A stretch of 43,766 nucleotides of DNA from Candidatus Altiarchaeota archaeon (GTDB taxonomy: Archaea; Altiarchaeota; Altiarchaeia; IMC4; QMZM01), in assembly GCA_030633595.1 (NCBI GenBank), contig DAOVSE010000001.1:1-43766 (forward strand). The letters are read 5' to 3'. The translations under genes and the position numbers were made by a program. Under the pieces are notes generated by a model. The model was given only the letters and a program-made list of their open reading frames with translations. It did not search any database and was not told the DNA's origin. Shown one piece after another: positions 9,829 through 41,812 of the stretch (within the stretch, counting starts at the first letter, position 1; every line of letters starts with the position of its first letter).

Positions 9829-10200
9829 AAAACAACCTTCAGAAAGGTTGACGCATCGAGCTTTAGAAAAGCTCGGCGCATCAAGCTTTAAAAAACCTTG
9901 ACCAAAAATTTAATCAGGTTTTCCGTCAACACTCAAGCTTTAGAAAAGCTCGGCGCATCAAGCTTTAAAAAACCTTGACCAAAAATTTATGTGAAATTTT
10001 TTCCGTCAACGCTTTTCCCAAAAGGGTTGAGCTTGACCAAAAATCTAACATGGATTTTTTTGATCAACCTTTTTCCTAAAAAGGTTGCATCAGAACGGGT
10101 ATTGTAGGTTTTCCCACAGACTGCAAAGCAGTCATGGGGCTTTGAAAATCTTTGATTTTCAAAATCGCAAGCTCGAACCCACAGAACGCGTTATCGAAGT
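9829..10200. repeat. intergenic stem-loop array containing a 77-nt tandem duplication
   Basis: Hairpins: CAACCTT/AAGGTTG at 9834-9851, CGAGCTTT/AAAGCTCG, TCAAGCTTT..AACCTTGA at 9882-9904, and TTTGAAAATC/GATTTTCAAA near 10142-10164. A 53-nt identical block occurs at 9861-9913 and 9938-9990. CTTGACCAAAAAT occurs three times. Confidence 0.8.
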
Positions 10201-10295
10201 TAACACTCACATACTTCCCAATACGACAAGAAATTTACGAAGTAAATTTGTTGGTTATTATAAAGTACAGCTATACTTTATAATTCAATAAAAAA

Positions 10296-11552
10296 ATGGG
10301 TAAGACAATCTCTGAAAAGATTTTAAGTAGGCACTCTGGAGAGGATGCATACGCAGGGGATATCGTCATAGCAGAGATTGACTTTGCGATGAGCCAGGAC
10401 GGTACTACCCCGCTGGCCATAAGGGCATTTAATGATATGAAAGCCAAGAAGGTGTGGAATCCAGAGAAGATAGCCCTTGTTATTGACCACTCGGCACCAA
10501 GTCCGAGTAAAGAGGTTTCAAATCTGCATAAGATGATGCGGAATTTTGGGTGTGAACATCATATAGAAAACTTCTATGACAGCGGTTGTGGTGTATGTCA
10601 TCAATTAATGCCAGAGGAGGGGCATGTAGTTCCGGGCGACTTAGTAGTTGGGGCCGACTCCCATACCTGTACATACGGGGCATTGGGTGCATTTTCAACC
10701 GGTATAGGGAGCACCGATATAGCTGCCGTCTTTTCTTCCGGTAAATTGTGGTTCAGGGTCCCAGAAACTATCAAATTTATAATCAATGGGAAATTGCCAA
10801 GGGGCGTTTATTCAAAGGATCTAATTCTGCATCTTATCGGAAAAATGACCGCAGACGGGGCAACTTACAAGGCTCTGGAATTCGGTGGCGATGTAGTCTC
10901 AGCTCTAAGTATTGACGCAAGGATGACCATAAGCAATATGGCAATTGAGATGGGCGCCAAAACCGGCTTAATTGATGTAGATAAAAAAACCCTAGACTGG
11001 GTAAAGGAACACTCCAAGAGAAAGCCTGCTGTTATAAAGAGCGATTCTGATGCTGAATTTACAAAGGTTGAGGAATATAATGCATCAGACCTGGAGCCGC
11101 AGATAGCGAAACCGCACAAGGTCGATAACACCTGCAATATTTCTGAGGTCGAGGGAACCCATATAGATGAGGCCTACATAGGAACATGCACCAACGGCAG
11201 ATTTGAGGATCTGAAAATCGCGGCGGAAATTTTAAAGGATAAACAAGCAAGTAAAGATGTCCGTTTTATTGTGGCTCCTGCATCCAGAGCCGTTTATCTG
11301 AGGGCAATGAATGAGGACGTAATCCAGACCTTACTAAAAGCTGGTGCTTCAGTAGTAACTCCCGGTTGTGGACCGTGTGTTGGAACACATGATGGAATCC
11401 CGGCAGATAACGAGAATGTGATCTCCACGGCCAATAGAAACTTCAAGGGCAGGATGGGGAATAATAGTGCATTTATATATCTAGCCTCTCCGGCAACGGT
11501 GGCTGCTTCCGCAATTACCGGAGAGATAACAGATCCGAGGAAATATCTATGA
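10296..11552 (+). CDS. leuC: aconitase-family dehydratase large subunit (3-isopropylmalate dehydratase LeuC / homoaconitase HacA)
   Basis: 418 aa with MSQDGTTPLA, GADSHTCTYGALGAFSTGIG, IGTCTNGR and PGCGPCVG cluster-ligand motifs. Confidence 0.85.
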   Translation: MGKTISEKILSRHSGEDAYAGDIVIAEIDFAMSQDGTTPLAIRAFNDMKAKKVWNPEKIALVIDHSAPSPSKEVSNLHKMMRNFGCEHHIENFYDSGCGVCHQLMPEEGHVVPGDLVVGADSHTCTYGALGAFSTGIGSTDIAAVFSSGKLWFRVPETIKFIINGKLPRGVYSKDLILHLIGKMTADGATYKALEFGGDVVSALSIDARMTISNMAIEMGAKTGLIDVDKKTLDWVKEHSKRKPAVIKSDSDAEFTKVEEYNASDLEPQIAKPHKVDNTCNISEVEGTHIDEAYIGTCTNGRFEDLKIAAEILKDKQASKDVRFIVAPASRAVYLRAMNEDVIQTLLKAGASVVTPGCGPCVGTHDGIPADNENVISTANRNFKGRMGNNSAFIYLASPATVAASAITGEITDPRKYL

Positions 11553-11602
11553 TTCCAACGTGACAATCCAGACTTATTCAGGAATTCTATGAGAACATCA
11601 TG

Positions 11603-11658
11603 ATCATGCCAAAATTTTTAACACGATTCTTCTGATTTTCTCGAGTTTTTGGCATGAT
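11603..11658. promoter_or_regulatory. 12-bp inverted repeat (ATCATGCCAAAA / TTTTGGCATGAT) plus TCATGA boxes upstream of the wHTH gene
   Basis: Perfect arms at 11603-11614 and 11647-11658. Four TCATGA palindromes lie between about 11598 and 11730. Confidence 0.35.
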
Positions 11659-11737
11659 TCTGTCATTTGAGTCATGAAAAAACCGAAAGGTATTTATATG
11701 AGTCATGACTAAATCATAATAATCATGAATATTAACG

Positions 11738-12202
11738 ATGAAAGATTCCCTCACAAATTATGACAGGGAGTTCGAGGAGATTGTGGGTAATCTCGCCGAT
11801 ACAGTACAGGATATGAGTGATCCGGTGGCTATAGCAACTATGCTGTATACGATCGCCGAGGAGAAAAAGAATGGCAACCTGGTGATAAGGGATATTAATG
11901 CTAAATTTGACAATATCCTTGAGGGATTGAAGGACATTTCCACAAGGTTGGATGATCTTGAGAGTAAAGTGGAGGTCCCATCAAGAGGAGATACCACATT
12001 CGAGATTTCCGACAGGGACAGGGAAATCTTGAGCTATGTAACCAGCAATAGGAGGGTCTGTGCCGACGACATTCAGGAAAAGTTCCAGTACCGGGGGAGG
12101 AATGCCGCATCTGCACGACTCAGCAAGTTATTCAGGGAAAATTTAGTGGAAAAGGTATATGTTGGAAGAAAGGTTTACTATCAACGCAGGATTCCTGACT
12201 AA
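11738..12202 (+). CDS. hypothetical coiled-coil + C-terminal winged-helix DNA-binding protein
   Basis: 154 aa. The C-terminal DREILSYVTSNRRVCADDIQEKF...RLSKLFRENLVEKVYVGRKVYY resembles a MarR/TrmB-like wHTH. Confidence 0.5.
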   Translation: MKDSLTNYDREFEEIVGNLADTVQDMSDPVAIATMLYTIAEEKKNGNLVIRDINAKFDNILEGLKDISTRLDDLESKVEVPSRGDTTFEISDRDREILSYVTSNRRVCADDIQEKFQYRGRNAASARLSKLFRENLVEKVYVGRKVYYQRRIPD

Positions 12203-12219
12203 TCAACCCCTTAACCAAA

Positions 12220-12321
12220 CCAACCACCCCCCGTCCTCCGTCAAGGAGGGCGGTCATTTTTATCACATCACAATGTGGTAATTCAGCCAACCACCCCCCG
12301 TCCTCCGTCAAGGAGGGCGGT
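12220..12321. repeat. two copies of a 35-nt GC-rich hairpin unit between convergent genes (terminator-like)
   Basis: CCAACCACCCCCCGTCCTCCGTCAAGGAGGGCGGT occurs at 12220-12254 and 12287-12321. Each holds a 9-bp stem, CCGTCCTCC/GGAGGGCGG, with one wobble. Confidence 0.75.
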
Positions 12322-12326
12322 TCTTC

Positions 12327-13298: not shown

Positions 13299-13728
13299 TT
13301 TGATCCATTTGTAGCTCCCGTATCAATCCCTTGGATGTAGAATCCAGTTCGAGCAGTTTATTGTTTATCTCGACAATCGCACTTTGTAGTCTATTCATGG
13401 TATTCTCTAATTCCCCATTCCTCGATTTCAGAATTTCCTTTGCTTCATCGATCGTCTTTTCAACAGAGATTCCAGCACCGACCCCAACAATAACCTTTTT
13501 ACTGTCCTTCAACTCGGCCCTCGCAAAGGAAGTAGAACCAATTGATACCAGGATTTCCGTACCCATCTTGTTCTCTTTTAGAGAATCCATGACCTCAATG
13601 GCAGAGCCTGTTTCTATCCTTGTACTCTCAACCATCTGCATCTGCCCTGAAAGACTTTCTATCTGTTTTTTGTATGTATCCGCTTCCATCAAGATTCTCT
13701 GGAGTTCCTGCTGTCTATCTACTTTCAT
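13267..13728 (-). CDS. pfdA: prefoldin alpha subunit
   Basis: 153 aa with coiled coil, beta hairpins (ILVSIGSTSFARAEL, VIVGVGAGISVE), then coiled coil. The conserved archaeal pfdA-ftsY order is present. Confidence 0.8.
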   Translation of the reverse strand: MKVDRQQELQRILMEADTYKKQIESLSGQMQMVESTRIETGSAIEVMDSLKENKMGTEILVSIGSTSFARAELKDSKKVIVGVGAGISVEKTIDEAKEILKSRNGELENTMNRLQSAIVEINNKLLELDSTSKGLIRELQMDQNVPVTEKKTQ

Positions 13729-14393
13729 TTTTTTCTTTTCAGTATCTTTACCTCCTTATCATAACCAACAATAACAATCTCGGGTTTTCTCTTTGAGAAT
13801 ATCCCATTCTCAATAACCCCCGGAATCGAGTTTAGTCTTTCTTCCAGCTCATGGGGCTCTTTTATGTCAAATTTAGTATCTACAATTACATTCCCATTAT
13901 CCGTCCTGAAATTTTTCCGCAATTCTGGAATCCCACCAAGATGTTTAAGCTCTTCTTCGACGGAATCCCTTTCTGACGGTTCAACCTCGATCGCTACCGG
14001 AAAATTCCCGAGTTTTTTAACGAGCTTTGTATGATCGACAATTACAATAAATGTATTTGATTTTTCCGCTATCCTCTTCTCCCATGTATGCGCCCCACCC
14101 CCGCCCTTTATAAGATTAAAGTCTGGATCAATCTCATCCGCGCCATCGATATCCACATCTATCTCCCTGTACTCGTTCATTGAGGCTAAGGGTATTCCTA
14201 GTTCCCCTGCAAGTCTTTCGGTCCTTCTGGATGTCGGAACTGCGATAATATCAAGATTTTTCTCAGCGAGCCGTTTTATCGCATACTCTGCGGTGGAGCC
14301 AGTTCCCAAGCCGATGACCATTCCATCCTCTATAAAGTCTACCGCCATCTCAGCCGCAGTTTTCTTTGATAACCCTATTTTTTTTATATGCAT
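13725..14393 (-). CDS. rpiA: ribose-5-phosphate isomerase A
   Basis: GLGTGSTAEYAI, DGADEID and KGGGGAH motifs. The start is moved to the internal ATG (MHIKKIG...) at 14393. The stop overlaps the pfdA start as ATGA. Confidence 0.85.
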   Translation of the reverse strand: MHIKKIGLSKKTAAEMAVDFIEDGMVIGLGTGSTAEYAIKRLAEKNLDIIAVPTSRRTERLAGELGIPLASMNEYREIDVDIDGADEIDPDFNLIKGGGGAHTWEKRIAEKSNTFIVIVDHTKLVKKLGNFPVAIEVEPSERDSVEEELKHLGGIPELRKNFRTDNGNVIVDTKFDIKEPHELEERLNSIPGVIENGIFSKRKPEIVIVGYDKEVKILKRKK

Positions 14394-14473
14394 CTTCAGG
14401 TTAGAAAACTGGAAGACAATCCAATAGCCGCTCCCTAACATAAACTATTGGACTTTCCAAGTATAAATGTGAT

Positions 14474-14519
14474 CTTGCCAGAGGTTAGAATTTGTCATGT
14501 AACGTTTATTCATACAATA
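14474..14519. repeat. 46-nt direct repeat, copy 1 (pairs with 15559-15604)
   Basis: CTTGCCAGAGGTTAGAATTTGTCATGTAAC[G/T]TTTATTCATACAATA. The two copies differ at one position. Confidence 0.85.
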
Positions 14520-14704
14520 ACTAATCTAACTGATATTTATTTTTAACTGGGGATTCTGTAGAAAATCAAAACCAACAGTATACACCCAAATACCGGTTCC
14601 AAAATTATCTATCTCACAACCCCGAATCTTGAACATATTACGAAATTCTGGATATTTCTTTGAATTTGTTGGATTTCTTGGAATTTTTGTCTTGAGATGG
14701 AATA

Positions 14705-15172: not shown

Positions 15173-15299
15173 TTTTTTGATCTAATAGATTATGTATAAA
15201 ACTTATATATAACCTACTTGGTCGGATCGTAAACCCCTCTCAACGAGAACCACTAACGAAATAAGGGGAAATCTCCGGTTTCTCACAACTTAGTTATCC

Positions 15300-15389: not shown

Positions 15390-15558
15390 CAGCTGACCGC
15401 CACCCCAACGCAGATTAGAGAGGTTTAAAAATACTGTTGTCTTTTATTTTGGAAGTTTAAAAAAGAGGGGTAAATCTGTTAAATTCCCACAATTTTAAGT
15501 CATATAGTTATATAGGTGTTTGAGCAAATTCAATTTGATAGATTACAACATTATTAGT

Positions 15559-15604
15559 CTTGCCAGAGGTTAGAATTTGTCATGTAACTTTTATTCATAC
15601 AATA
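15559..15604. repeat. 46-nt direct repeat, copy 2 (contains a TATA-like TTTTATTCATA upstream of rpl44e)
   Basis: See copy 1. This copy lies 32 nt upstream of the rpl44e ATG. Confidence 0.85.
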
Positions 15605-15635
15605 TCAGTATATTATCTCAACATCACTGTTAAAA

Positions 15636-18848: not shown

Positions 18849-18963
18849 AGGATTAAAAATACATTTTGAATTTTATTTAGTGCTATCGAGCACTGAATGT
18901 GTGAGTATAGCACATTTGCTCAAGCTTTATGAAAGCTTGAAATTACTTTTTCAGGATTAAAAA
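18849..18963. repeat. stem-loop cluster bracketed by the 11-nt direct repeat AGGATTAAAAA
   Basis: Direct repeats at 18849-18859 and 18953-18963. Between them are GTGCT/AGCAC, ATGTG/CACAT and TCAAGCTTT-ATG-AAAGCTTGA (18920-18940). Confidence 0.7.
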
Positions 18964-18983
18964 GTTGGGATAGTATGTTAGTA

Positions 18984-19313
18984 TCACAGAGGACAGATTA
19001 TCTCACACTCTCCGTCAGAAATCTGAGGAAAACAACCCTGGAAAAAACAAAGTACTTCTATACCCGTATCTGTAATGGTTGTATATCCTTTATCCCCGCA
19101 ATATTTCCATATATCCTTTCTCGATTTTTCAAAGCAATTGCCCATGCATAAGTAATCTGCTACTGGTTTTTCTTCCAAACACGTTATATCCGTAGCCCTC
19201 CATGTATCCTCCCCAATTTTCTCCCATTCTAATCCCGCAGATTTTTGGGGTTGAATACAACCTATCAAAAGGATAATTGCCAGCAATCCAATTCCGTAAT
19301 AAATTTTCATCAT
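18984..19313 (-). CDS. small secreted Cys-rich protein (lipoprotein-like signal)
   Basis: 109 aa. The N-terminus YGIGLLAIILLIGC resembles a lipobox. Eight further Cys residues follow. Confidence 0.45.
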   Translation of the reverse strand: MMKIYYGIGLLAIILLIGCIQPQKSAGLEWEKIGEDTWRATDITCLEEKPVADYLCMGNCFEKSRKDIWKYCGDKGYTTITDTGIEVLCFFQGCFPQISDGECEIICPL

Positions 19314-19644
19314 AAGCTTAGTATTAGATTGAATTGCCTAAAAGGTTTGAGCAGAACTTAGTAGTGTGGAATATATCAAATCTGCCCGACCATCCACAAC
19401 CTTAGGGAATCTTGACAATAAAGAAAACAAATGTTTTATATAAAGAACAATTGTTTGTAACTACTCAGGCTACACATGCTCATTCATCTTGAGAAGCTAA
19501 ATATATTTATACTCAACAAAGACGCATATATAGAACAATTAGAAAAGCGTATTGGACAGGGGGGTAGTTACGTTTCAGATAAACTACTATCCAATAGTTG
19601 TTTCTGACTCATCATCCCAATAGGCTTATCAAAGAATCCATGCA

Positions 19645-19980
19645 TCAGGCTTCCATCGACCTCTTAGGATGACCGAATTCGGGCAAAGCAGCAACAGCCT
19701 CTATCTCAGGCTGAATTTCTTTCTCGTACCTTATTGTCTCTTTCACAATCTTGCTTTTTGGATTAAGCTTGTAGAGTTGTGCCTTCCCAAATTTTCTGGT
19801 GGGGATCACAATCCCGAGTCTCTCCAGCTTATTCCACATACCATATAGAGTAGATTCGGACATGCCCGAGAGTCCTGCCAGCTCCTTTTTCGAGTAATCC
19901 AGATTTGGGTGGTCTAAGAGCATATCAAATACCCTGTTAAATGGTGTATCTCCAAAAATCTTTATAAACGCCGACTCCAT
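19645..19980 (-). CDS. winged-helix transcriptional regulator (small, accessory-type)
   Basis: 111 aa. YSKKELAGLSGMSESTLYGMWNKLERLGIVIPTRKFGKAQLYKLN is an HTH plus wing. Confidence 0.55.
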   Translation of the reverse strand: MESAFIKIFGDTPFNRVFDMLLDHPNLDYSKKELAGLSGMSESTLYGMWNKLERLGIVIPTRKFGKAQLYKLNPKSKIVKETIRYEKEIQPEIEAVAALPEFGHPKRSMEA

Positions 19981-20128
19981 TTTGACTGTATAATATTAAG
20001 GTTTCAAACTTAAGATATCTAAATAGTTAGGGTGGGTAGTTACAAAAATTTTATCGGCTAAAAATCTTGAAAACTTTTAAGGGTATATTCTAAAAAATAC
20101 CTAAATACTTTCTAAATAGTAAGGTAAT

Positions 20129-20296
20129 ATGGAAAAAATCAAGGTACTGGGTGGGAAAAGGGTCAGAGTAAGAATTCCCGATAAATTAATAACTACCGAT
20201 GAGTTCATAAGACAAGTAAAACCAGTATTCCAGAAAATAGCAAATAGGTTAACTGAAGACGAATGGAGAAAGATAAAGAGATCTACTGCAGCATAG
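20129..20296 (+). CDS. 55-aa hypothetical ORF (weak AbrB-like GKRVRVRIPDKL motif)
   Basis: ATG preceded by AAGGT. Below the ORF-track length cutoff. Convergent with the PIN-like ORF and overlaps it by 14 nt. Confidence 0.25.
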   Translation: MEKIKVLGGKRVRVRIPDKLITTDEFIRQVKPVFQKIANRLTEDEWRKIKRSTAA

Positions 20297-20720
20297 CTCT
20301 GAGATCGTGATAACTAATTATGTCCGGATAAAATTCTTTTGCTTTTCCCAATATCTCATTATCACCTGTAAGGAATATCAGATTATATTCCTTTGCTATC
20401 ACCACGTGAATCAAATTGTTGATTCTTTTCTTAAATCTCGTAAGATTCGCTAATTCCACGATATCATTACTGATCGTCGGATTCTCTATATAATTCACCA
20501 TTAACTCACTCTCAAAAGCCGCCCATATACGATCTGCCTCACCCTTACTACAATTCCACTCTGTTCTAAGCCCCCTAATGATCTCAGCTTTGGTTAGAGG
20601 AGATATATAGATCTCAAGTCTATCTAGATTATTCCTAAGAAACTCTATAACCCTTGGTATTTCAAAATCCTGATTTCTTCGAGTACACACCAACATCTTC
20701 TTAAAGAAACCATAGATCAT
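20283..20720 (-). CDS. PIN-like domain protein, possibly degenerate
   Basis: 145 aa. SPLTKAEIIRGL and LIHVVIAKEYNLIFLTGDNEI resemble the PIN middle and C-terminal motifs. The expected N-terminal acidic motif lies upstream of the ATG (..HYLIEDGKN..) behind a stop. Confidence 0.4.
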   Translation of the reverse strand: MIYGFFKKMLVCTRRNQDFEIPRVIEFLRNNLDRLEIYISPLTKAEIIRGLRTEWNCSKGEADRIWAAFESELMVNYIENPTISNDIVELANLTRFKKRINNLIHVVIAKEYNLIFLTGDNEILGKAKEFYPDIISYHDLRAMLQ

Positions 20721-20755
20721 GTTTGCATGTAAATATGTATTTTTGCCATCTTCTA

Positions 20756-20950
20756 TCAGATAGTGTTAAACAAAAATATGGAATTAGCATGCCATTCTGG
20801 AAATTGAGTTTGAATGTATTCTGCCAATTTGTGAGAAACGGATCTCTCGTTAACATCGTTTTCAAGTAGAAAAGCATCATTTTTAAACAAAAGTTCAACT
20901 GCGATCCAAACCTTCTTCTCTATTTCTTCCTTTTTATAATCCATAACCAA
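20756..20950 (-). pseudogene. 64-aa ORF, probably the N-terminal fragment of a larger (nuclease-like?) gene
   Basis: NERSVSHKLAEYIQTQFPEW resembles the start of a nuclease-type core, but the frame stops shortly after and no simple frameshift extends it. Confidence 0.25.
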
Positions 20951-20968
20951 TACCCTCCAAATTCTTTT

Positions 20969-22363
20969 TTATTCCCTCACAACCTCCCACTTACCGCCTT
21001 TATCCGGTCCAATTCTTTTCAATAAACCCCTTTTCTTTAGATTGTTGATACTGAACTTAATGCCGTCTTCAGTAATTCCAATAATCTCAGCCAGCTCTTT
21101 TCGTGTAATCCCGGGCTTGTCTTTTACCAATTCCAATATTTTCTGGGTAGTTTTCTGGGTAGTTTTCTGGGTAGTTTTTAGGCTATCAAAATAGAATTCA
21201 ATCTTATAATAATCTACATCCCCTCCAACTACAGGGGCTTTACTATACTGACTTTTCCACCCTGAAAACATCTTATCAAAACCAGAACCTGCATTCTCGG
21301 CAAGGCCTATTGCTCTAAAGATGCGCGCAAGCACAGGATTCCTGGGCTGTGAAAAATCTTCTTCCATGATTATTTTGAAATCTTTTGGCAATGCCCCCGG
21401 ATTCATGAATTCAATTCTGTTTGTGAAGACCCTTATACGTGGTTTTAATGTGCTGAAATACTCAGAATGCATAAGAAGATTAATTAATGCCTCCCTGATA
21501 GCAACAACCTGAGGCTGGTCTGCTGAAGCAAAACCCATACCTTTTAATTGAAACGGAATATCAATCTTCTTTAGCAACCTTTCAATAATACTAAAATAAA
21601 ATCTGAAGAGATTCTCCTCTTCACTTAACCTGTAAGTGTATCGCGTAGGTGCATCAGAATAAGATACCCCAGGTATCTCAAGATAATCTATTCTAAAATC
21701 AGTTATAATCTTATTTATACCGTCTTCCCTTCCGAAGAAAAGCATCCCACCAACAGTAACTTTGTCATCAATCAGGACATGCAGCTTCTTTAACAATTCT
21801 TTTGCAGTGAGCTTATTATATCTATGATCCGGATTGAATTTTTTCATATATGCCCTGTAATCTTCAACAGTCTTTTGGTCAAGGCTTTCGAATGTGAATG
21901 CTGTTAATTCCTTATCTTTTGACGAGAATGCCTGCTCTCGAAACATGGCATCTATTTCTTCCTGCGTTGCTCTTTGATCTCCGCTTCCCGTCCTTATGAA
22001 TGTATTCTTTGGATTATTATAAAACACCGGTTTCTTTTCAGCAAAGGGTATATAAAAGGCAAGAACAGTTTTTTTGTCAAAAACATATTTTTTACAGACA
22101 ACATTTATTCTCTTATTAAATTTATTGCCGTTTCTTAAGACAGTAGTAAAGTCCTCCGCTAGTTTTTCAGGATTTCTTACACCTGAGATATCATATTTTC
22201 TTCCTGCCTTTTTAACGCCAAAAATAATCCACCCACCCGCAGTATTAGAAAAAGCACTAACAGTTTCCCAGCTGTTTTTTGGAATCTCTGATTTAGCTTC
22301 TTTAACCTCAAAATCTTCCCATTCAATATCTTCAAGCTTTTTTATTAATTCCCCTTTATCCAT
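20969..22363 (-). CDS. COG2865-type protein: Schlafen/AlbA_2 domain + HATPase_c_4-like domain + C-terminal wHTH
   Basis: 464 aa with EDFEVKEAKSEIPKNSWETVSAFSNTAGGWIIFGV at the N-terminus, then ALINLLMHSEY, RNPVLARIFRAIGLAENAGSGFDKM, and a C-terminal HTH (ITRKELAEIIGITEDGIKFSINNLKKRGLL). Confidence 0.8.
   Translation of the reverse strand: MDKGELIKKLEDIEWEDFEVKEAKSEIPKNSWETVSAFSNTAGGWIIFGVKKAGRKYDISGVRNPEKLAEDFTTVLRNGNKFNKRINVVCKKYVFDKKTVLAFYIPFAEKKPVFYNNPKNTFIRTGSGDQRATQEEIDAMFREQAFSSKDKELTAFTFESLDQKTVEDYRAYMKKFNPDHRYNKLTAKELLKKLHVLIDDKVTVGGMLFFGREDGINKIITDFRIDYLEIPGVSYSDAPTRYTYRLSEEENLFRFYFSIIERLLKKIDIPFQLKGMGFASADQPQVVAIREALINLLMHSEYFSTLKPRIRVFTNRIEFMNPGALPKDFKIIMEEDFSQPRNPVLARIFRAIGLAENAGSGFDKMFSGWKSQYSKAPVVGGDVDYYKIEFYFDSLKTTQKTTQKTTQKILELVKDKPGITRKELAEIIGITEDGIKFSINNLKKRGLLKRIGPDKGGKWEVVRE
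21141..21176 (-). repeat. perfect 3 x 12-nt in-frame tandem repeat (encodes TTQK x3) in the COG2865 linker
   Basis: TTCTGGGTAGTT occurs three times with no mismatch. Confidence 0.9.
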
Positions 22364-22951
22364 ATTTTGAACCCCACACCCGCCAAATTATTCTTTATCT
22401 CTTCATTCAAGCTCTGCCCTTCTTTCATCTGTTCAGAAAGCTCAGACGTTAATTTTCTCATCTTCTCATCAAAGGGTATGCCGTCGTCTTCCTCTTCTTC
22501 CATGCCGACATATCGTCCGGGGGTTAATATGTGATTGTGTCTTCTGATCTCATCTAATTTGGCGGATTCTATCTGGTAGAAGTCTCTGGCTTCTTGTCTC
22601 TCTATTTTTAGCAGGAGCCGATAGTGTGTCCACGTTAATTTGTCACTCAGTGCATGACTTTTTGGGTATGTCTGGTAGAATTGCCTCATGTATCTTAGGT
22701 TGGTTTCTGTGAATCCTCTGCCGTAGTCTCTGGTTAGTCTCTCTGACAGTTGTTTTATCAGGTTTCGCCCGTATCTGGCTCTTTCCCCGGCCTTTTTGTT
22801 CTTCTTCGATTATTATTCTGCCTATGTTCCAGTAGGCTTCTGTCATGGTGGAGTTGACTGCCCGGTAGGCTGTTGTGCGCGCCTTCTCCAGGACCAGCTT
22901 TATGTTCTCGTATGCGTTCTCCATTCTCTCCGGGTTTTCTCCTTCGGTCAT
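22345..22951 (-). pseudogene. frameshifted DUF1016 (YhcG-like) N-terminal fragment fused to the C-terminal tail of a type I R-M methylase (HsdM)
   Basis: ORF 22643-22951 reads ..AYRAVNSTMTEAYWNIGRIIIEEEQKG. The reading continues in another frame as GERARYGRNLIKQLSERLTRDYGRGFTETNLRYMRQFYQTYP...FYQIES, with the shift in the CCCCGGCC run at 22785-22792. It then switches to KLDEIRRHNHILTPGRYVGMEEEEDDGIPFDEKMRKLTSEL...NLAGVGF, which is typical of an HsdM C-terminus. Confidence 0.6.
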
Positions 22952-23096
22952 CTTATTAATACATTAGAATTCTATAAATAAGTATAAACCCGGAAACCAT
23001 AGACATGTCAGTAGAATGATTATCTCTTTCCTTTATTGGCATGTCCCAGAAGGGGCTTTTTGCATATAATCTCTGCAAGAGAAACAGATAAAACAA

Positions 23097-23202
23097 GATG
23101 CCGTGGGATTCGAACGGCAGTGGCGGTGTTCTGGGTTTGGATATGGTGGGAGTATAGGAGGGCGAGATAGACGGAAAACTGTCTATTTATTGGGCTGATT
23201 CT
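23097..23202 (+). repeat. dispersed roughly 110-120-nt repeat, copy A (pairs with 42265-42387)
   Basis: Shares GATGC..GGATTCGAA...AGTGGC.GTG...ATAGAC.GAAA...TATTTATTGGG.TGATT.CT with copy B, same strand. Confidence 0.6.
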
Positions 23203-23336
23203 ATAGATGAATTCAATGAGACATAGAATCTGGAGGTAGAAAAATTAATTAATACCCTGAGCAAGAAGTCTTAAAGAAATTACTTAAATCTCTCTAAAAT
23301 TTAATAGTGAAAGCCTAAATTATTAGAACTAAGAAA

Positions 23337-28830: not shown

Positions 28831-28860
28831 GTTTTTCTTATTCAAGGCCGTTCCATGTTT

Positions 28861-29217
28861 TTATTCTTCACACTCCACTCTCTTGGAGAAGTCACGACGG
28901 TCTCCAGAAATGGATCCATCCCCTTTTTCTACGTCAAATACGTACTTCACATGGAAAAGGTAGATAAGAATCGGGAAATCTATCGTGATAGCAACAGGAT
29001 CGAAAACGAAAACAGAGGTAACAAGACCGAAAGCGGTCAATATAACCGCCCCGTTCCAGGCCCACTTCGTTAGATGCCATAGACCCCAACCCAGCACAAT
29101 GAAAATCGGGGAGAGTATTAACATCAACGCAATACCGCCGTAGATGATATACTGCTGCCCTTCAAGGCTCTGAGGCGTTGGCACGGTCAAAACCGTGTAC
29201 AAAGCAAAAAAAACCAT
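28861..29217 (-). CDS. hypothetical integral membrane protein
   Basis: 118 aa with three or four hydrophobic helices. More plausible than the overlapping plus-strand ORF. Confidence 0.4.
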   Translation of the reverse strand: MVFFALYTVLTVPTPQSLEGQQYIIYGGIALMLILSPIFIVLGWGLWHLTKWAWNGAVILTAFGLVTSVFVFDPVAITIDFPILIYLFHVKYVFDVEKGDGSISGDRRDFSKRVECEE

Positions 29218-29388
29218 TGAGTAAAAACCCTATACCCGCCAAAAAATACAAAAGCGCCAGAAGATTCACAATAAACGGGGCACGCATAATTAATTTTATG
29301 GTTGTGTGTAGAAATATGATGGTTGCGATTTTTGTGAGGAACTAAGGGAAAAACAATCAATATTTATCCACGAAAATACAAAGATTTA

Positions 29389-29706
29389 ATGGTGATGAGG
29401 ATGTACCCCTATGCAGATGTCATTGAAAAGCTTGTTGAAGCCAAGGTAGATCGGGATTTTGTAGAGCAAACGCTCCAGAAGTTGCTGGAAAGGGAAAGGT
29501 TCATCATTCAGAACAACCTTGCTGACTGTCAGAAGGAAATGAGGGTATTTGAAAAAAAATATGGAATGAACTCTGACGAATTCTTGGACAGATTCAATAA
29601 AGGTAAAGTAGATGATAGAGACGACTATATAAAGTGGTTTTCTCTGAAGGACACCTATGATCGCTTGAAGCAACTTGAGCAGGATCTAAGTGGGGAGAAT
29701 GCATAG
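29389..29706 (+). CDS. small helical protein, candidate antitoxin/partner of the downstream DUF6516-like gene
   Basis: 105 aa. The EKKYGMNSDEFLDRFNKGKVDDRDDYIKWFSL motif recurs, as I recall, in small TA-associated proteins. It overlaps the downstream ATG by 8 nt. Confidence 0.4.
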   Translation: MVMRMYPYADVIEKLVEAKVDRDFVEQTLQKLLERERFIIQNNLADCQKEMRVFEKKYGMNSDEFLDRFNKGKVDDRDDYIKWFSLKDTYDRLKQLEQDLSGENA

Positions 29707-30056
29707 GATAGTGACTTACTTAGATAACTTGGAATCCCTGATCTGTATCAGCGACAATAACGCCCCTGACGGGATACTAGAATGCCAAACTCTATCTCAA
29801 GAACGGAACAGAGCTTTACGTCACGGAATACATTGTTCTGGAAAAGGAGATCATAAAGTCCAAATATAAGTACCACTGGCAGGACAAAGACGGAAATCTA
29901 ATTGCTCGCTGGGACAATGTACCTCATCATCCAGAGGTATCTACAGTCCCACATCACAAGCATGTCAAGGACAAAGTTCAAGAATCTGAAGAGCTGAGCC
30001 TGGGGGAAATTCTAGATTTAATCAGAAAGGGCAAAGAATGGACTACGTTAAAATAG
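29699..30056 (+). pseudogene. DUF6516 / TumE-like toxin gene interrupted by a frameshift
   Basis: Frame 1 reads MHRIVTYLDNLESLICISDNNAPDGILECQ... and then stops. From 29781 a second frame reads NAKLYLKNGTELYVTEYIVLEKEIIKSKYKYHWQDKDGNLIARWDNVPHHPEVSTVPHHKHV... Confidence 0.55.
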
Positions 30057-30334
30057 GACAATTAATAAATAATGCAATTAAGAAACATCATTGGCTCTGG
30101 CATCCCTACAACTTCTCGTATAACTGTCTTTACTGGATCCCCTGCATTGGAAACTACATAGAAACCATCGACACCCTCAGGGACCCAGACATTTTACGGC
30201 AACTTGAAGAATCCCGGGAGGATATAGAAAATGAAAGATGCTGGCGTATAGACTTCGAAAATAACAAGCTCATCCCCAGCCCAAAACTGCAAGAAGAATG
30301 TGAAGTAGAAGGGCCCCGGATTATAGGGGATTGA
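30038..30334 (+). CDS. hypothetical 98-aa ORF with an antitoxin-like ETIDTLRDPDILRQLEESREDIE motif
   Basis: The motif resembles the C-terminal region of Phd/YefM/RelB-type antitoxins. The N-terminal half looks non-native and may be degenerate. Confidence 0.25.
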   Translation: MDYVKIGQLINNAIKKHHWLWHPYNFSYNCLYWIPCIGNYIETIDTLRDPDILRQLEESREDIENERCWRIDFENNKLIPSPKLQEECEVEGPRIIGD

Positions 30335-30611
30335 TGTTATCTACCCCCAAGAAGTTACCACGAAGAGTTCTGTGCTGGCAATTTCCTTATCTTCTGTATC
30401 CCCACAACACCCAAACCCAGAACATTCCCATCACCACCACTCTGTTGGCAACAACAAATAGTTCAGGGAAAGTCTTCCAATCAACAAACACCTGCAGAAA
30501 TCTCTGGTCTGCAGGATCTGAAGCCTTGGCTTAGTAGGGTTTTTGTGAATTCCCGCGGGTTTTATGCCTGTGTGTAGAAATTATAAAGAATCAGGATTTG
30601 AGGTGTGTGAG

Positions 30612-30962
30612 ATGTCGTCTCGGAATTTCGAAACAATCTGGCGAAATATTCTAGAGTACGCAAAAACCTATTCTGAAATAAAGACATTATCAAGGCAATC
30701 AGCAAATAGGATAGTTTCAGTTGACGAAAGTAATCGGATAGCAGTCATATCCAAAAATCCACGAGATAAACCAACAAGGAGGAAATTAACAGGGAAAGAC
30801 TTCCGTTACGCTTGGAATATCCTTGTTTCTAAAAAAAGATTGCATCTTAAGGATTTGTCCAGGATAACAGGTAAAAAATCCGTGATCTGTGCGTTTTTGG
30901 CCAGAGCTAATCCATCAATCGTTGATTACGGAAAACGTCCACTAACGCTATATTTTCGATGA
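30612..30962 (+). CDS. hypothetical protein
   Basis: ORF starts at the ATG at 30612, preceded by AGGTG. I recognise no family motif. Confidence 0.35.
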   Translation: MSSRNFETIWRNILEYAKTYSEIKTLSRQSANRIVSVDESNRIAVISKNPRDKPTRRKLTGKDFRYAWNILVSKKRLHLKDLSRITGKKSVICAFLARANPSIVDYGKRPLTLYFR

Positions 30963-31055
30963 TTAAAAAAAGGAATCAATCCTAGATTCAAGAACCCACC
31001 CAGATATCCTCACTTTTTCTTATCTGAATCGAATTTATTAAAACCTCAGAAAAAA

Positions 31056-33530: not shown

Positions 33531-33787
33531 ATCTTCTGGAGGTAACGATTAATGTTCCATCCGAGGTAGCGGACGTCTGTTGTAGGTCCATTGAGATGGA
33601 GACGAAGAGCGACGCATTACGCAGATCAGAAATAACCTTGGATCGTGATGGGAACTTCATGAATCTAAAGATCAGGGCCAGGGACCTTACAGCGCTTCGG
33701 GGATCCATGAATACCTATCTCAGATGGATTGCAATGTGTTTAAATCTAACAAAAACAACCTTCAGAAAGGTTGATGTGGCCGACTAA
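33527..33787 (+). CDS. pcc1: KEOPS complex subunit Pcc1 (C-terminus now encoded by the inserted stem-loop element)
   Basis: 86 aa with LKIRARDLTALRGSMNTYLRWIAMCLN, typical of Pcc1/CTAG. The last 11 codons run into the hairpin array. Confidence 0.7.
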   Translation: MNLLEVTINVPSEVADVCCRSIEMETKSDALRRSEITLDRDGNFMNLKIRARDLTALRGSMNTYLRWIAMCLNLTKTTFRKVDVAD

Positions 33788-33931
33788 AGTCGGATCGTTC
33801 GAGCCAAAGGCTCGAAGATTCCAAAACTCCAAAGGAGTTTTGAGAACGCACTCAAGACCGAAGGTCTTGCGTGCCATCAGAACGAGGTTATGGGGTCACA
33901 GACCGCATTATAGAATCTCAACTAACAAAAA
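33746..33931. mobile_element. 166-nt stem-loop array bracketed by the 10-nt direct repeat CTAACAAAAA (putative insertion)
   Basis: Direct repeats at 33746-33755 and 33922-33931. Five consecutive hairpins lie between 33756 and 33874. The left 24 nt are identical to 9829-9852. Confidence 0.65.
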
Positions 33932-34292: not shown

Positions 34293-34332
34293 TTCAGCGA
34301 GATTTATCCATTGAATCCCATATCTTAATGTT

Positions 34333-34388
34333 CAGATGATGATACCGACCCAGGCTGAATAGGGATGACAAGGGTAGCTGCTGATGGA
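34333..34388 (+). ncRNA. candidate C/D box sRNA (2'-O-methylation guide)
   Basis: C box ATGATGA at 34336-34342, then a 12-nt spacer, D' CTGA at 34355-34358, C'-like GGGATGA at 34362-34368, another 12-nt spacer, and D CTGA at 34381-34384. Confidence 0.55.
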
Positions 34389-34587
34389 CTTGAACTTACA
34401 CTGTAAGTTCACACCAAGGTGCGGCATGCGCTCCCTTCGGTCGCTTAGCCACACTGAATGAGATGATTTTTTATTGAACTGTCACACCAGTTCACATGCG
34501 TGTACTATCTTGTTGAATTCACGGAGTGAATTCCTTTCTTTTGGTCAAGGTTTTCTTTTGTAAAGAAAAGCTTGACTGCTGATGGAC
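34378..34587. repeat. 186-nt stem-loop array bracketed by the 12-nt direct repeat CTGCTGATGGAC
   Basis: Direct repeats at 34378-34389 and 34576-34587. Hairpins at 34392-34410, 34476-34493, 34515-34533 and 34546-34574. Confidence 0.7.
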
Positions 34588-36112: not shown

Positions 36113-36116
36113 CATA

Positions 36117-37960: not shown

Positions 37961-37961
37961 G

Positions 37962-39326: not shown

Positions 39327-39331
39327 AAAAG

Positions 39332-41353
39332 ATGCCAACCCTGATCATAACTGAAAAACCAAACGTAGCAGAAAGAATAGCGAATTCTATAGGGGAGGCG
39401 GAGCAGCATAGAAAAGGGAAGGTTCGTTACTACAGAGTAGGTGATGTATTCGTTGCCCCAGCGGTTGGTCATATCTATACATTGAGGGAAAGAAACTACG
39501 GCGTCTGGAAGTATCCCGTCTTTGATATATCGTGGGTTCCAAGTTACGAGGCGAATAAAAACTCAAAGTTTACCAAAAATTATCTCGAGAATATAAAGAC
39601 CCTCGCAAAAAAGTGCAACAGCTTCATAAACGCGTGCGACTATGATATCGAGGGGGAGGTAATCGGATTTAATGTCATAAAATATGCCTGTGATATAGAT
39701 CCCTTTAAACAAAATGTGAAACGCATGAAATTCTCTACTCTAACCAAGGAGTCCATAGTTAACGCATACTCCGCACTCGAACCCATAAATAAGGGTATGG
39801 CCGACGCTGGAATTACAAGACATATCCTGGACTGGTACTGGGGGATAAATCTTTCTCGTGCATTGACCCTGGCCATAAGGAGGGCAAAGGGTTACACAAC
39901 CTTAAGCATAGGGAGAGTTCAGGGCCCGAGCCTAAAGATTCTAGCCACGAGAGAGAGACAGATAAGAGAATTCAAACCCGTGAAATTCTGGGAGCTCGAG
40001 ATGATCTCTCTCAAAGACAATTGTGAGGTAAAGGCATTACATTCGAGGGGGAAATTCTGGGAAAAGGAAGGGGCAGAGGAAACAAAGAAAAAATGCGGCA
40101 AAATTGCCATTGTCTCAAAGGTTCAAAAAAGTAAATACAAACAATTAGCGCCAGCACCCTTCGATCTAACCACCCTGCAGACAGAGGCGTACAGGCATTT
40201 GGGGATATCCCCCAATGATACATTAGAAACCGCCCAGGGGCTTTACACAGATGCTTATATAAGCTATCCGAGAACGTCAAGTCAGCAATTGCCAAAGGAG
40301 ATTAATTATCGGGAGATTCTTAAAAATTTAACCAAGATCAAGGAATACAGTGGAGGGGTGAAAGAGCTCCTTTCAAAAAAGAAACTGAAGCCGAATAACG
40401 GGAAAAAGAAGGATCCTGCACATCCAGCCATCCATCCAACGGGAGTGATCCCGGAGAGACTTACCTCTAATCAGGAAAAGATTTACGATTTAATCGTGAG
40501 GAGGTTTCTTGCAACCTTTGGCGATCCAGCAGTCAGGGAAACTGTTACGATAGAGTTGGACAATAATGGAGAGATATTCATCTCAAAGGGAACGATAACG
40601 AGTGAGAAGGGGTGGCATTCCCTCTATGGAAAATATGCAAAATTTGAAGAGAATCTACTTCCGGATCTGAAGAAAGATGAAAAACTAAATGTGAAGAAGA
40701 TAAACCTCCATGAAAAGGAAACTCAACCCCCCAAGAGGTATACCCCATCATCCATTATCAGGGAGATGGAGAAGAGAAATATTGGAACGAAGGCAACGAG
40801 GTCACAGATCCTGAATATCCTATTCAGGAGGGGTTATCTCCATGGAAAATCGATTGAGGTAACCCCTTTGGGCTTAAATGTCGTAGATACTCTTGGAAAA
40901 TACTGCCCCGAGGTGTTGAGCGAAAAATTAACCCGAAAATTCGAAAAGGAGATGGAGCAGATCGAATCTGGAAAAATTCCCCCAGAGAGGGTCATTGAGG
41001 GAGGGAAAGAGACCATAATTCGCATATCAAAGGAATTTAATGAAAATGAAGAGAAGATTGGAAAGGAACTCGCAAAGTCCTTACAATCGACAAAAGCAAC
41101 TGACAAATATGAATCCATGGGTAAATGCCTTAAATGCAACGGCAATCTTATTCTTAGAAAGTCAAAATTGGGGGGGCAGTTCCTTGGATGTAGCAATTAC
41201 CCCGATTGCTGTTTTACCATATCACTGCCGAAATCCCGTTTTAAAATCTCAGGAAAATGCGAGCACTGCGGATACGCTAAAATTATCATTTTAGGCAAAA
41301 AGCCGTGGACTGTCTGCGTTAATCCGGAATGCCCAAGCAAGAAGAAGACCTAA
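39332..41353 (+). CDS. topA: type IA DNA topoisomerase (archaeal Topo I/III)
   Basis: 673 aa with the TOPRIM LIITEKPNVA, AVGHIY, DYDIEGE, the catalytic Tyr in ISYPRTSS, and two C-terminal Cys4 zinc ribbons. Confidence 0.9.
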   Translation: MPTLIITEKPNVAERIANSIGEAEQHRKGKVRYYRVGDVFVAPAVGHIYTLRERNYGVWKYPVFDISWVPSYEANKNSKFTKNYLENIKTLAKKCNSFINACDYDIEGEVIGFNVIKYACDIDPFKQNVKRMKFSTLTKESIVNAYSALEPINKGMADAGITRHILDWYWGINLSRALTLAIRRAKGYTTLSIGRVQGPSLKILATRERQIREFKPVKFWELEMISLKDNCEVKALHSRGKFWEKEGAEETKKKCGKIAIVSKVQKSKYKQLAPAPFDLTTLQTEAYRHLGISPNDTLETAQGLYTDAYISYPRTSSQQLPKEINYREILKNLTKIKEYSGGVKELLSKKKLKPNNGKKKDPAHPAIHPTGVIPERLTSNQEKIYDLIVRRFLATFGDPAVRETVTIELDNNGEIFISKGTITSEKGWHSLYGKYAKFEENLLPDLKKDEKLNVKKINLHEKETQPPKRYTPSSIIREMEKRNIGTKATRSQILNILFRRGYLHGKSIEVTPLGLNVVDTLGKYCPEVLSEKLTRKFEKEMEQIESGKIPPERVIEGGKETIIRISKEFNENEEKIGKELAKSLQSTKATDKYESMGKCLKCNGNLILRKSKLGGQFLGCSNYPDCCFTISLPKSRFKISGKCEHCGYAKIIILGKKPWTVCVNPECPSKKKT

Positions 41354-41387
41354 TTTTTATGGAAAGAATCGAATATTAAGCTCTATA

Positions 41388-41567
41388 GGGCCCGTGGCTC
41401 AGCATGGTTAGAGCGCTCGACTGATAATCCCTTACAGTGGCTCACAGTCACCGGGCTAATTGCCCCTTTGTGTGCTAGTGTACTGCGTTCAGGATCATTC
41501 CCTTGGGGGTGGTTCAATAACGGGATCATAAATCGAGAAGTCCTGAGTTCAAATCTCAGCGGGCCCA
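41388..41567 (+). tRNA. tRNA-Ile (anticodon GAU, 41423-41425) with a 105-nt intron at the canonical 37/38 position (about 41427-41531)
   Basis: Acceptor GGGCCCG/CGGGCCC, D arm GCTC..GAGC, anticodon stem CTCGA/TCGAG, loop CTGATAA, T arm CTGAG-TTCAAAT-CTCAG, discriminator A, and no encoded CCA. The intron ends can form helix-bulge-helix (TGAT/ATCA flanked by CCC/GGG). Confidence 0.85.
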
Positions 41568-41812
41568 ACGAACCCCTTTCTTTACAAAAGAAGGGTGTTT
41601 ATCCCCCAAGAAAGGAATCTGCTTCGGAAATTCAACAAAGAATTATCCTGTGTCGTCGAGCGTTAGCGAAGACGGCACAAAGCGTGAACCGATTTCGCGG
41701 TTCAAAGAAAGGAATCTGCTTCGCAGATTCAACAATTCCTAAATTTCCGTTAAGAATGTATCTTGAGTGTTCCGACGGTAGTCAATCACATTCGCTTCGC
41801 GAATTCAACAGA
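41568..41812. repeat. stem-loop array with a 97-nt-spaced internal duplication, between tRNA-Ile and the RNase P Pop5 gene
   Basis: AAGAAAGGAATCTGCTTCG occurs at 41608-41626 and 41705-41723. Hairpins: GAATCTGC-TTC-GCAGATTC at 41712-41730, GAACCG..CGGTTC at 41686-41703, and ATTCGC-TTC-GCGAAT at 41790-41804. TTTCTTTACAAAAGAA is shared in reverse with 34553-34568. Confidence 0.75.

Follow-up and report, generated by a model that had tools for sequence, protein, structure and literature searches.

What fills the spacers between the housekeeping genes of an uncultured archaeon with so many short hairpins? The window examined here, that is, the whole stretch of 43,766 nucleotides of contig DAOVSE010000001.1 (Candidatus Altiarchaeota archaeon), holds six such spacers, numbered arrays 1 to 6 by position, which had been described in an original prediction made from the sequence alone. 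The explanation favored, at a probability of about 60%, is that the arrays are accumulated small, non-coding, hairpin-forming selfish repeats of a copy-and-paste type, mobilized in trans, in an Altiarchaeales chromosome. It centers on the dispersed non-coding element common to arrays 1 and 4, named here the hairpin-A element. This element has multiple copies, scattered beside unrelated genes in several archaeal phyla; orthologous sites of close relatives lack it, and a target duplication of variable length sometimes flanks it.

The packing of the six spacers with hairpins was confirmed by a shuffling control. With loops of 3–8 nt, the spacers hold 24, 19 and 13 perfect stems of 6, 7 and 8 bp or more, while 500 dinucleotide shuffles of the same spacers gave means of 3.2, 0.92 and 0.31 and maxima of 12, 6 and 3, which rules out chance hairpins in AT-rich DNA. 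Minimum free energy (MFE) z-scores ranged from −1.7 to −8.9, with five of the six spacers much more stable than their shuffles. In the window, the density of perfect hairpins with stems of 8 bp or more is 3.9 per 10 kb; syntenic loci of close relatives, and likewise 768 kb of other loci, give 1.3 per 10 kb. Of the 17 window hairpins of this class, 13 have 3-nt loops. An assembly artefact is ruled out as the source, since an independent metagenome scaffold, 99.7% identical to the window over 6.5 kb (L001; compared loci carry L numbers), has the same arrays.

The five sequence modules said to link the spacers were all recovered no more than 2 nt from where they had been placed. Module (i) is a 32-nt match with 91% identity (9820–9851 and 33743–33774), within which the reported 24-mer is exact; module (ii), CATCAGAACG...CACAGAC, is present at 10089 and 33875; and module (iii), the TCAAGCTTT hairpins, lies at 9881, 9958 and 18920, with a reverse-oriented relative at 34545–34575, its first two sites being parts of one local 77-nt tandem duplication. 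Module (iv) exists at positions shifted by 2 nt (41577–41592 and 34551–34569), and its 16-mer match goes only weakly beyond chance. The GAA..TTC stems of module (v) exist too but are largely local paralogues: AAGAAAGGAATYYGCTTCG..ATTCAACA occurs three times in array 6, and two related TTGAACT..AGTTCACA hairpins are found in array 5. A single window-wide hairpin family had to be given up, as at least four unrelated repeat families are present instead; a C/D-box small RNA (sRNA) candidate and an intron-bearing tRNA lie at array edges. The modules extend beyond the window into relatives and other archaeal metagenome-assembled genomes (MAGs).

The hairpin-A element and its distribution

The window features on which the element is defined are the following.

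9829–10295, plus strand: array 1, a full hairpin-A element of the Altiarchaeal subfamily, enlarged to ~461 nt by nested hairpin modules.
9833–9850, plus strand: hairpin A of copy 1, CAACCTT-CAGA-AAGGTTG.
9856–9989, plus strand: nested composite module, a tandem duplication of 77-nt period, in which 9856–9912 and 9933–9989 are 98% identical (repeat families D3, D4 and D7).
10065–10200, plus strand: second half of array 1, with a hairpin-A-like stem CAACCTTTTT-cct-AAAAAGGTTG, CATCAGAACG (module ii), a hairpin-B region broken by extra hairpins, and CCCACAGAACGCGTTATCG.
33746–33931, plus strand: array 4, a second copy of the hairpin-A element (33756–33921) with a shortened far end and four nested hairpins.

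The element starts exactly at hairpin A, CAACCTT-CAGA-AAGGTTG, which directly touches the flank, so that its left end always reads CAACCTTCAG... Hairpin A is followed by the conserved single-stranded tract AYCATCA, 2–4 nt, a second hairpin (hairpin B) with lineage-specific sequence and conserved pairing, and a lineage-specific tail. In all copies the boundary at hairpin A is exact, whereas the far end is different from lineage to lineage; terminal inverted repeats are absent. In Altiarchaeota, the consensus of ~150 nt consists of an A-run, hairpin A, AYCATCASAACGAGTATTGAGGGG, a loop and CCCCTCAGAACGCATTACAACAAACC...ATACTTTATAATACAATAAAAAA, the A-run ahead of hairpin A being of variable length.

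Array 1 fills the entire spacer from the stop codon of a CBS-HTH gene to the ATG of an aconitase-family (LeuC/HacA-like) gene, and both of its ends fit this consensus: AAAAACAACCTTCAGAAAGGTTGA at the 5' end, and CTATACTTTATAATTCAATAAAAAA at the 3' end, a 25-nt match just before the downstream start codon. Its nested module at 9856–9989 contains TCAAGCTTT..AAACCTTGA hairpins with a C.C mismatch. Since array 1 has both consensus ends and array 4 has the 5' part and a shortened remainder, modules (i) and (ii), which had been listed as independent, are in fact the two halves of one ~150-nt element.

A covariance model built from seven simple copies recovered 9827–9899 (36 bits), 10062–10209 (21 bits) and 33750–33832 (26 bits) in the window and, in ~200 kb of close relatives, one copy, in L089, with the stem TAACCTT/AAGGTTA. 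It gave 64 matches in 543 kb of carrier loci and one weak match in 768 kb of unrelated loci. When the 18-mer CAACCTTCAGAAAGGTTG was scanned across one genome per GTDB species, 86 loci were found, with ~70 copies in ~20 archaeal MAGs at 3–11 per MAG; the 15 bacterial matches compare with ~17 expected by chance, and their surrounding sequence is unrelated. Carrier MAGs are labeled Altiarchaeota/Altiarchaeales, Nanohaloarchaeota-like DPANN, Thermoplasmatota, Hydrothermarchaeota and "Methanobacteriota". Hairpin A together with AYCATCA is present in 51 of the ~70 copies, and hairpin B (folding z < −2) in 85% of 53 distinct copies.

Pairing in the stems is kept through double changes. Compensatory variants of hairpin A (CAAACTT/AAGTTTG, CGACCTT/AAGGTCG and TAACCTT/AAGGTTA) are all followed by ATCATCA. 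Hairpin B was assessed by per-sequence folding and a model-based alignment, as MAFFT with RNAalifold did not align it across lineages. In the model-fitted alignment, which leans towards structure and for which hairpin A had been selected by exact match, 98% of cells are paired and double-sided changes occur in 14 of 15 pairs, a level reached by none of 500 shuffles. The co-variation noticed earlier is thus present, but the selection on structure drawn from it is only one of two compatible causes: co-variation alone cannot separate structural selection from re-palindromization by template switching.

Insertion and the explanations weighed

Empty sites for arrays 1, 3 and 4 were found in relatives ~76–82% identical at the nucleotide level, with the flanking genes spaced by 1–14 nt (arrays 4 and 1) or 102 nt (array 3). 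At the array-1 site, L089 (~82% identity) reads ...cgaTAAtatatactaaaATGggc, and window positions 9832–10292 are 461 extra bases. At the array-4 site, L169 (~81% identity) reads ...aatttaacagaagattaaaATG, with the Pcc1 stop 1 nt ahead of the prefoldin start; the window has a 166-nt insertion in the last Pcc1 codons, flanked by the 10-nt duplication CTAACAAAAA (33746–55 and 33922–31), and its Pcc1 ORF (open reading frame) reads through hairpin A to a new stop at 33787. At the array-3 site, the genes for the RFC small subunit and IleRS are adjacent in L183, L184 and L185, 102 nt apart, and are separated by 4.4 kb in the window, where homology to these loci stops at 18867 and returns at 23293. By these comparisons, arrays 1, 3 and 4 are insertions, as the flanking duplications had led the original prediction to suggest, whereas array 2 is a positionally conserved tandem repeat rather than an insertion polymorphism.

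The direct repeats reported around three arrays were verified, namely CTAACAAAAA (array 4), CTGCTGATGGAC (array 5) and TTTC(T)AGGATTAAAAA (array 3). Among 62 copies of the element, the flank touching hairpin A is repeated over at least 10 nt at the far end in nine, compared with two and one in two controls. Repeat lengths were 10, 13, 14, 16, 20, 23–32, 27 and >40 nt, most copies having no detectable repeat. Frequently it is a gene's or tRNA's 3' end that has been duplicated, which leaves the gene intact.

A mechanism that would produce this pattern can be outlined. The element would be copied and pasted via a folded single-stranded intermediate, either single-stranded DNA (ssDNA) or RNA, recognized at hairpin A by an enzyme encoded elsewhere; it would be joined at staggered breaks, whose repair would duplicate the flank. 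Such an intermediate at staggered breaks fits an element with one invariant hairpin at its terminus, a far end that varies and duplications of variable length. Copies may persist for the most part where they would do little harm, either in the handful of nucleotides that separate genes or in the final codons of genes, tRNAs and sRNAs. As comparison with relatives shows, further hairpin modules insert into resident copies, units duplicate in tandem and repeats homogenize within a genome. Template switching in replication probably creates and re-perfects the stems, and the palindromes may be kept by template switching or gene conversion. Should transcripts be affected, for instance by a 3'-end hairpin or a newly made stop codon, this is likely incidental.

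Several points weigh against mobile repeats. The mobilizing enzyme was not identified in the window or in ~0.5 Mb of flanks around the copies. A clear flank duplication is found in only ~15% of copies, and some of the long ones are possibly due to unequal exchange rather than insertion, since they lie within tandem arrays (L005, L025). Relatives have array 2 and parts of arrays 5 and 6 at the same positions, which is what functional elements would be expected to show. From phylum to phylum, hairpin A keeps 100% identity as the remainder of the element diverges, which could reflect a conserved host function instead; this invariance is in addition partly circular, because matches were chosen by exact identity. 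Finally, the taxon labels of the carriers were taken from the titles of MAG records.

The main rival is a host regulatory role, in which the hairpins are RNA structures (3'-UTR stabilizers, terminator helpers or operon processing sites; UTR, untranslated region) kept by selection and spread by duplication, with hairpin A plus AUCAUCA as the place where a conserved archaeal RNA-binding protein binds or cleaves. We consider it rather unlikely. Position speaks for it, as ~30 copies begin 5–7 nt past a same-strand stop codon or provide the stop themselves (TGA at +16), and the ORF to the left lies on the same strand 20 times and on the opposite strand eight times; this bias is only moderate, so that strict targeting of gene 3' ends was rejected. 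The invariance of hairpin A and its loop across phyla, the compensatory stem changes, the positional conservation of array 2 and of the hairpin at the Pop5 stop, and the mostly purine loops (aga, aaa, gaa) in the sense of the upstream gene would also suit such a role. However, orthologous genes of relatives manage with spacers of 1–14 nt, and one insertion rewrites the Pcc1 C-terminus; these element-free sites and the damage to Pcc1 weaken the rival. Furthermore, the copies (extragenic, or located at the ends of genes) are found in either orientation with respect to genes and tRNAs, and some lie inside one another. One copy is within a tRNA intron at position 37/38 (L081), and others directly follow tRNA 3' ends or a duplicated tRNA 5' end (L034, L181). 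Hairpin content varies between genomes ~80% identical, and no consistent T-run follows the hairpins.

Two chemistries by which mobile repeats of this kind could move were weighed; both are possible, and neither has its enzyme found. In the first, an RNA of the opposite strand (5'-hairpin B'-YUGAUGRU-hairpin A'-3', plus U5 in Altiarchaeota) would be reverse-transcribed from the nicked target, with hairpin A' as the 3' recognition stem-loop, as in short interspersed nuclear elements (SINEs). As a specific account, this retroposition is very unlikely. It would explain the single invariant end and the far end that is variable or shortened (copy 2 of the window), the flank duplications of variable length (10 to >40 nt), and the A-run before hairpin A in Altiarchaeota, as if a U-tail had annealed to an A-rich nick. 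The strand tests disagree. A strand-symmetric search found 11 C.A internal mismatches in hairpin B on the gene-sense strand (10 C-then-A, one A-then-C) and no G.T; nine of the 11 lie two or three pairs from the stem base, they come from at least five lineages with differing stems, and on the opposite strand they are U.G or G.U wobbles. The opposite strand is also more stable on folding in 44 of 53 copies, perhaps a composition effect of the G+T-rich strand. MFE and the symmetric mismatch count thus favor the opposite strand, while the model-fitted alignment favors the gene-sense strand (19 G.U and two A.C). No reverse transcriptase was seen in the window or the ~0.5 Mb flanks, and non-LTR-type (long terminal repeat) retroposition is not known in archaea. 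The tRNA junctions lack non-templated CCA, so there is no sign of mature-RNA chimeras.

The likeness to SINEs that share a 3' stem-loop with a LINE (long interspersed nuclear element) lies in a single conserved stem-loop at one terminus, bodies that vary, target duplications differing in length and, in one hairpin-A subfamily, an A- or U-rich junction. In contrast to SINEs, the host is prokaryotic and the partner reverse transcriptase was not seen in the sequence searched. A SINE-like retroposon would be compatible with these features provided that the RNA is made of the opposite strand, and a single shortened copy is documented.

The second chemistry, suggested in the original prediction, treats the elements as substrates of an HUH Y1 transposase (IS200/IS605 TnpA type, or REP-associated tyrosine transposase, RAYT) acting on folded ssDNA, in the manner of repetitive extragenic palindromic (REP) sequences or palindrome-associated transposable elements (PATEs). 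It is about as improbable. A hairpin with an adjoining linear motif, AYCATCA, is the type of signal that Y1 transposases read; copies are extragenic, numerous and clustered, lack terminal inverted repeats and appear structured on one strand. On the other side, the hairpin is at one end only and touches the flank directly, and no conserved 4–5 nt target lies beside it. Flank duplications exist, while Y1 transposition is not known to make any. The HUH/RAYT partner that had been anticipated was found neither in the window nor near any copy within the ~0.5 Mb of flanks, and the variable flank duplications argue against that chemistry as well. The PATEs of haloarchaea and cyanobacteria, derived from IS200/IS605, are likewise archaeal, non-coding and hairpin-bearing without terminal inverted repeats, but they have subterminal hairpins at both ends, a fixed short target (4–5 nt) and no duplication, whereas the hairpin-A element has one terminal hairpin 0 nt from the flank, unconserved flank bases and duplications.

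An origin of the hairpins in place by template switching in replication, with a family likeness that is only apparent and nothing mobile, is highly improbable and is refuted as the sole explanation because identical copies are dispersed: the mechanism has been documented elsewhere (PMC8794818) and suits the perfect stems with 3-nt loops and the half-hairpin of L171 described below, but fails on sequences of 18 to 150 nt that recur identically in different phyla and at loci unrelated to one another, on an 84-nt reverse-oriented module at another locus, and on the 461-nt and 166-nt insertions with defined ends.

Searches for a partner or a known family were made on several levels. The hairpin-A element encodes nothing. 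All-against-all BLAST of 1,412 ORFs from the carrier loci (~0.5 Mb) gave no recurrent protein family beside the copies, and Pfam scans of 40 window ORFs gave no transposase, reverse transcriptase or integrase domain (including Y1_Tnp); an autonomous copy or a neighboring enzyme was rejected on these grounds. A viral origin was ruled out, with 0 matches to the 18-mer in IMG/VR. A scan of the whole window against Rfam 15, at the gathering threshold and up to E = 5, matched none of the arrays, the only matches being the tRNA and the sub-threshold C/D sRNA. The earlier statement that the architecture has no prior description was upheld by that result and by the literature searched, in which the 18-mer appears in no paper and archaeal hairpin repeats gave only a general census of MITEs (miniature inverted-repeat transposable elements) and analogies.

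Known structures were compared by eye with the opposite strand (UGAUGAU, hairpin and CUGA) and rejected: a C/D-box sRNA or K-turn (9-nt spacing, no terminal stem), a hammerhead ribozyme (no GAAA past helix II, variable first base of CUGAUGA), a mimic of an anticodon or T-arm (wrong loop parity), a bulge-helix-bulge (BHB) splice motif (flanks are direct, not inverted, repeats) and an integron attC site (RYYYAAC...GTTRRRY core sites absent; the neighbors are housekeeping genes). A likeness of GGUUGAUCAUCA to the 3' end of 16S rRNA needs a 5-nt gap and was judged insignificant.

It had been stated that the arrays are neither CRISPR, nor classic MITEs with terminal inverted repeats, nor a single REP consensus, and this was borne out. 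A CRISPR array is rejected since the hairpins differ among themselves and lack any periodicity of repeats and spacers, and since the window ORFs gave no cas domains. Classic MITEs are similarly small, non-autonomous, non-coding, multi-copy and intergenic, with filled and empty sites and flank duplications; unlike them, the hairpin-A element has no terminal inverted repeats, and its right ends, whose limits the flank repeats set, differ by lineage and do not complement the left end. It has one conserved end, and the length of the duplication is not fixed (5 to >40 nt). A 2024 census found Ca. Altiarchaeum hamiconexum to be the archaeal genome densest in MITE-like repeats, with 146 per Mb, and does not describe the hairpin-A element (PMC11602168). 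This cMITE-dense Ca. Altiarchaeum belongs to the same host clade as the window (PMC11602168).

With bacterial, RAYT-associated REPs and bacterial interspersed mosaic elements (BIMEs), the hairpin-A elements share only descriptive features: they are short extragenic imperfect palindromes with an adjoining conserved linear motif, non-coding and high in copy number, clustered in spacers and often just past stop codons. They differ in being archaeal, in comprising several unrelated hairpin families with variable flank duplications, in arrays that are mostly head-to-tail or of mixed families, with no regular alternation of orientation, and in that no RAYT/Y1 gene was found (window ORF domains; ~0.5 Mb around copies). 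Double-hairpin elements of fungal mitochondria are comparable short hairpin repeats. The repetitive hairpin-forming elements (RHEs) of sponge mitochondria also comprise several short families that invade spacers, nest and differ between close relatives, but they reside in organellar genomes and have no counterpart of a terminal hairpin invariant across phyla (PMC2800124).

A bolder version of the mobile-repeat explanation, which we regard as quite unlikely, would make the hairpin-A element an unrecognized class of archaeal mobile DNA, recognized by way of its one invariant terminal hairpin, exchanged between phyla in sediment and seep communities, and inserting with long variable duplications either via SINE-like retroposition, the first in Archaea, or via a new ssDNA integrase chemistry. 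If movement is RNA-mediated or uses a new ssDNA chemistry, a new mode of transposition would be added to the archaeal repertoire.

Small selfish repeats (REP, BIME, MITE) are well charted in bacteria and hardly in uncultured archaea. The exact 18-base signature can be traced through Altiarchaeota, DPANN-like archaea, Thermoplasmatota and Hydrothermarchaeota, and is a possible marker of DNA exchange among co-occurring archaea, including known host–symbiont pairs; the element can also serve as bait for its mobilizing enzyme. Gene ends are reshaped by the insertions, as seen in the new Pcc1 C-terminus, split operon junctions, the tRNA-intron copy and duplicated tRNA ends, and the inflated spacers of otherwise compact genomes matter for MAG annotation and binning.

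Arrays 2, 3, 5 and 6 and the nested modules

The remaining arrays and the RNA genes at their edges are as follows.

12220–12326, plus strand: array 2, tandem 67-nt unit made of a G+C-rich hairpin CCGTCCTCC/GGAGGGCGG and a hairpin ATCACAT/ATGTGGT.
18868–18948, plus strand: array 3, three hairpins, AGTGCT/AGCACT, GTGTG/CACAT and TCAAGCTTT/AAAGCTTGA.
34332–34387, plus strand: C/D-box sRNA candidate, Rfam snoPyro_CD 26.4 bits (gathering score 45), boxes ATGATGA..CTGA..ATGA..CTGA.
34390–34575, plus strand: array 5, insertion behind the sRNA candidate, bracketed by CTGCTGATGGAC (34378–89 and 34576–87).
41388–41567, plus strand: tRNA-Ile(GAU) gene with a ~101-nt intron, Rfam tRNA 52 bits, missed by ARAGORN.
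41568–41812, plus strand: array 6, hairpins from the 3' end of tRNA-Ile to the stop of Pop5, which is on the minus strand.

Array 2 lies between convergent genes, a 154-aa ORF without Pfam match and an FtsY-like SRP54-type GTPase. Its unit is present in two copies in the window, three in L001 and in L089, and at least three in L090. The loop is GTCAA, GAAA or ACCA depending on the genome and is uniform inside each genome, which indicates that the repeats are homogenized.

Array 3, with the imperfect flank repeat TTTC(T)AGGATTAAAAA (18845–60 and 18949–64), is at the left edge of the 4.4-kb window-specific segment. This segment (18868–23292) contains a PIN-domain gene, a Schlafen AlbA_2/HATPase_c_4/HTH gene and a DUF1016 fragment, carries the 10-nt repeat GAAATTACTT at 18939–48 and 23276–85, and looks like an integrated island.

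Array 5 is apparently an old insertion, being homologous in the window, L169 and L171, each with different hairpins. Over the aligned part, L169 has an identical version of the sRNA candidate in front of it; the D-box end of this candidate forms the left copy of the bracketing 12-nt repeat, and the other copy lies at the far end of the array. Two hairpins at ~34470–34533 are specific to the window, and L169 has another two-hairpin module. At the same site in L171, the ~100-nt stretch at window positions 9942–10042 of array 1, which comprises the second copy of the nested module and the hairpins after it, recurs in reverse orientation as an 84-nt copy with 87% identity and a flanking TCAAG repeat. 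The hairpin TGAACTTAC/GTAAGTTCA is complete in the window and L169, while L171 has only the left arm (CTGAACTTACACT, then CACC). Since the 9 nt missing there, GTAAGTTCA, are the exact reverse complement of the preceding bases, this half-hairpin fits template switching.

Array 6 contains three paralogous GGAATYYGC-ttc-GCRRATTC hairpins and the pair TGTCGTCGAGCG/GCGAAGACGGCA and GTGAACCG/CGGTTCA. This pair is a tandem unit beside Pop5 in L174–L176, where strains with identical Pop5 differ by 60 nt in copy number, and the hairpin adjoining the Pop5 stop is conserved in L178. The intron of the preceding tRNA-Ile gene had no similarity to any other sequence compared here. Orthologues in L181 and L182 have no intron; upstream they carry a second, 22-nt copy of the tRNA 5' end and, behind it, a hairpin element based on CAACC.

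Within the hairpin-A element, 3-nt-loop hairpins nest at two hotspots, the gap between hairpin A and AYCATCA and the loop of hairpin B. The module GTGGCGGAGC-aaa-GCTCCGACAC followed by ACACGCCAGACC-gaa-GGTCTGTCGTGT is found within hairpin-A elements, in array 5 of L169 and after the tRNA-Ile of L181. This recurrence, the reversed array-1 stretch in L171 and the differing hairpins of array 5 show that small hairpin modules relocate.

Larger units are also repeated. In L005 (786–1250) and L025 (~5900–6200), the hairpin-A element and 40–107 nt of the adjoining gene 3' end form tandem arrays. Within L044, and within L071, the pair of flank copies matches exactly or almost so, yet the two genomes differ from each other, a pattern that suggests ongoing homogenization.

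The window and its genes

By Pfam scans of its ORFs, the gene content of the window is that of archaeal housekeeping genes.

Genes: HcyBio-CBS, aconitase-family LeuC/HacA-like, FtsY-like SRP GTPase, RFC small subunit, IleRS and AspRS.
Further genes: Pcc1, prefoldin beta, NadA, SepSecS/aminotransferase-type, topoisomerase I and Pop5.

The nearest named homologues of NadA, Pop5 and RFC-S are 77–84% identical and annotated as Candidatus Altiarchaeales or Altiarchaeota, and the DNA is judged from them to be Candidatus Altiarchaeales chromosome. At ~23000, a minimum of the cumulative GC skew coincides with a switch of gene orientation from mostly minus to mostly plus, which could be a replication origin or merely a divergent gene boundary.

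Other repeats and variable segments were observed along the window. A 393-aa ORF without Pfam match (4885–6066, minus strand) is rich in internal repeats (families D1, D5, D6 and D17), and two tandem paralogous small ORFs (~63–65 aa; 7247–7728) form a 213-nt repeat with 77% identity at the 3' end of the HcyBio gene. A 47-nt direct repeat, 98% identical (14473–14519 and 15558–15604), surrounds a 1.04-kb segment with an acylphosphatase-like ORF, located right at the point where synteny passes from L089 (ending at 14378) to L183 (starting at 15582). Positions 28841–31004 hold ~2.2 kb of short ORFs without Pfam matches, where the relative L169 has ~0.5 kb with one 152-aa ORF. Conversely, L089 (reverse-complemented, 8293–9161) carries an extra ORF-bearing insert of ~870 nt, which the window lacks, between the LeuC-like gene and the downstream 154-aa ORF.

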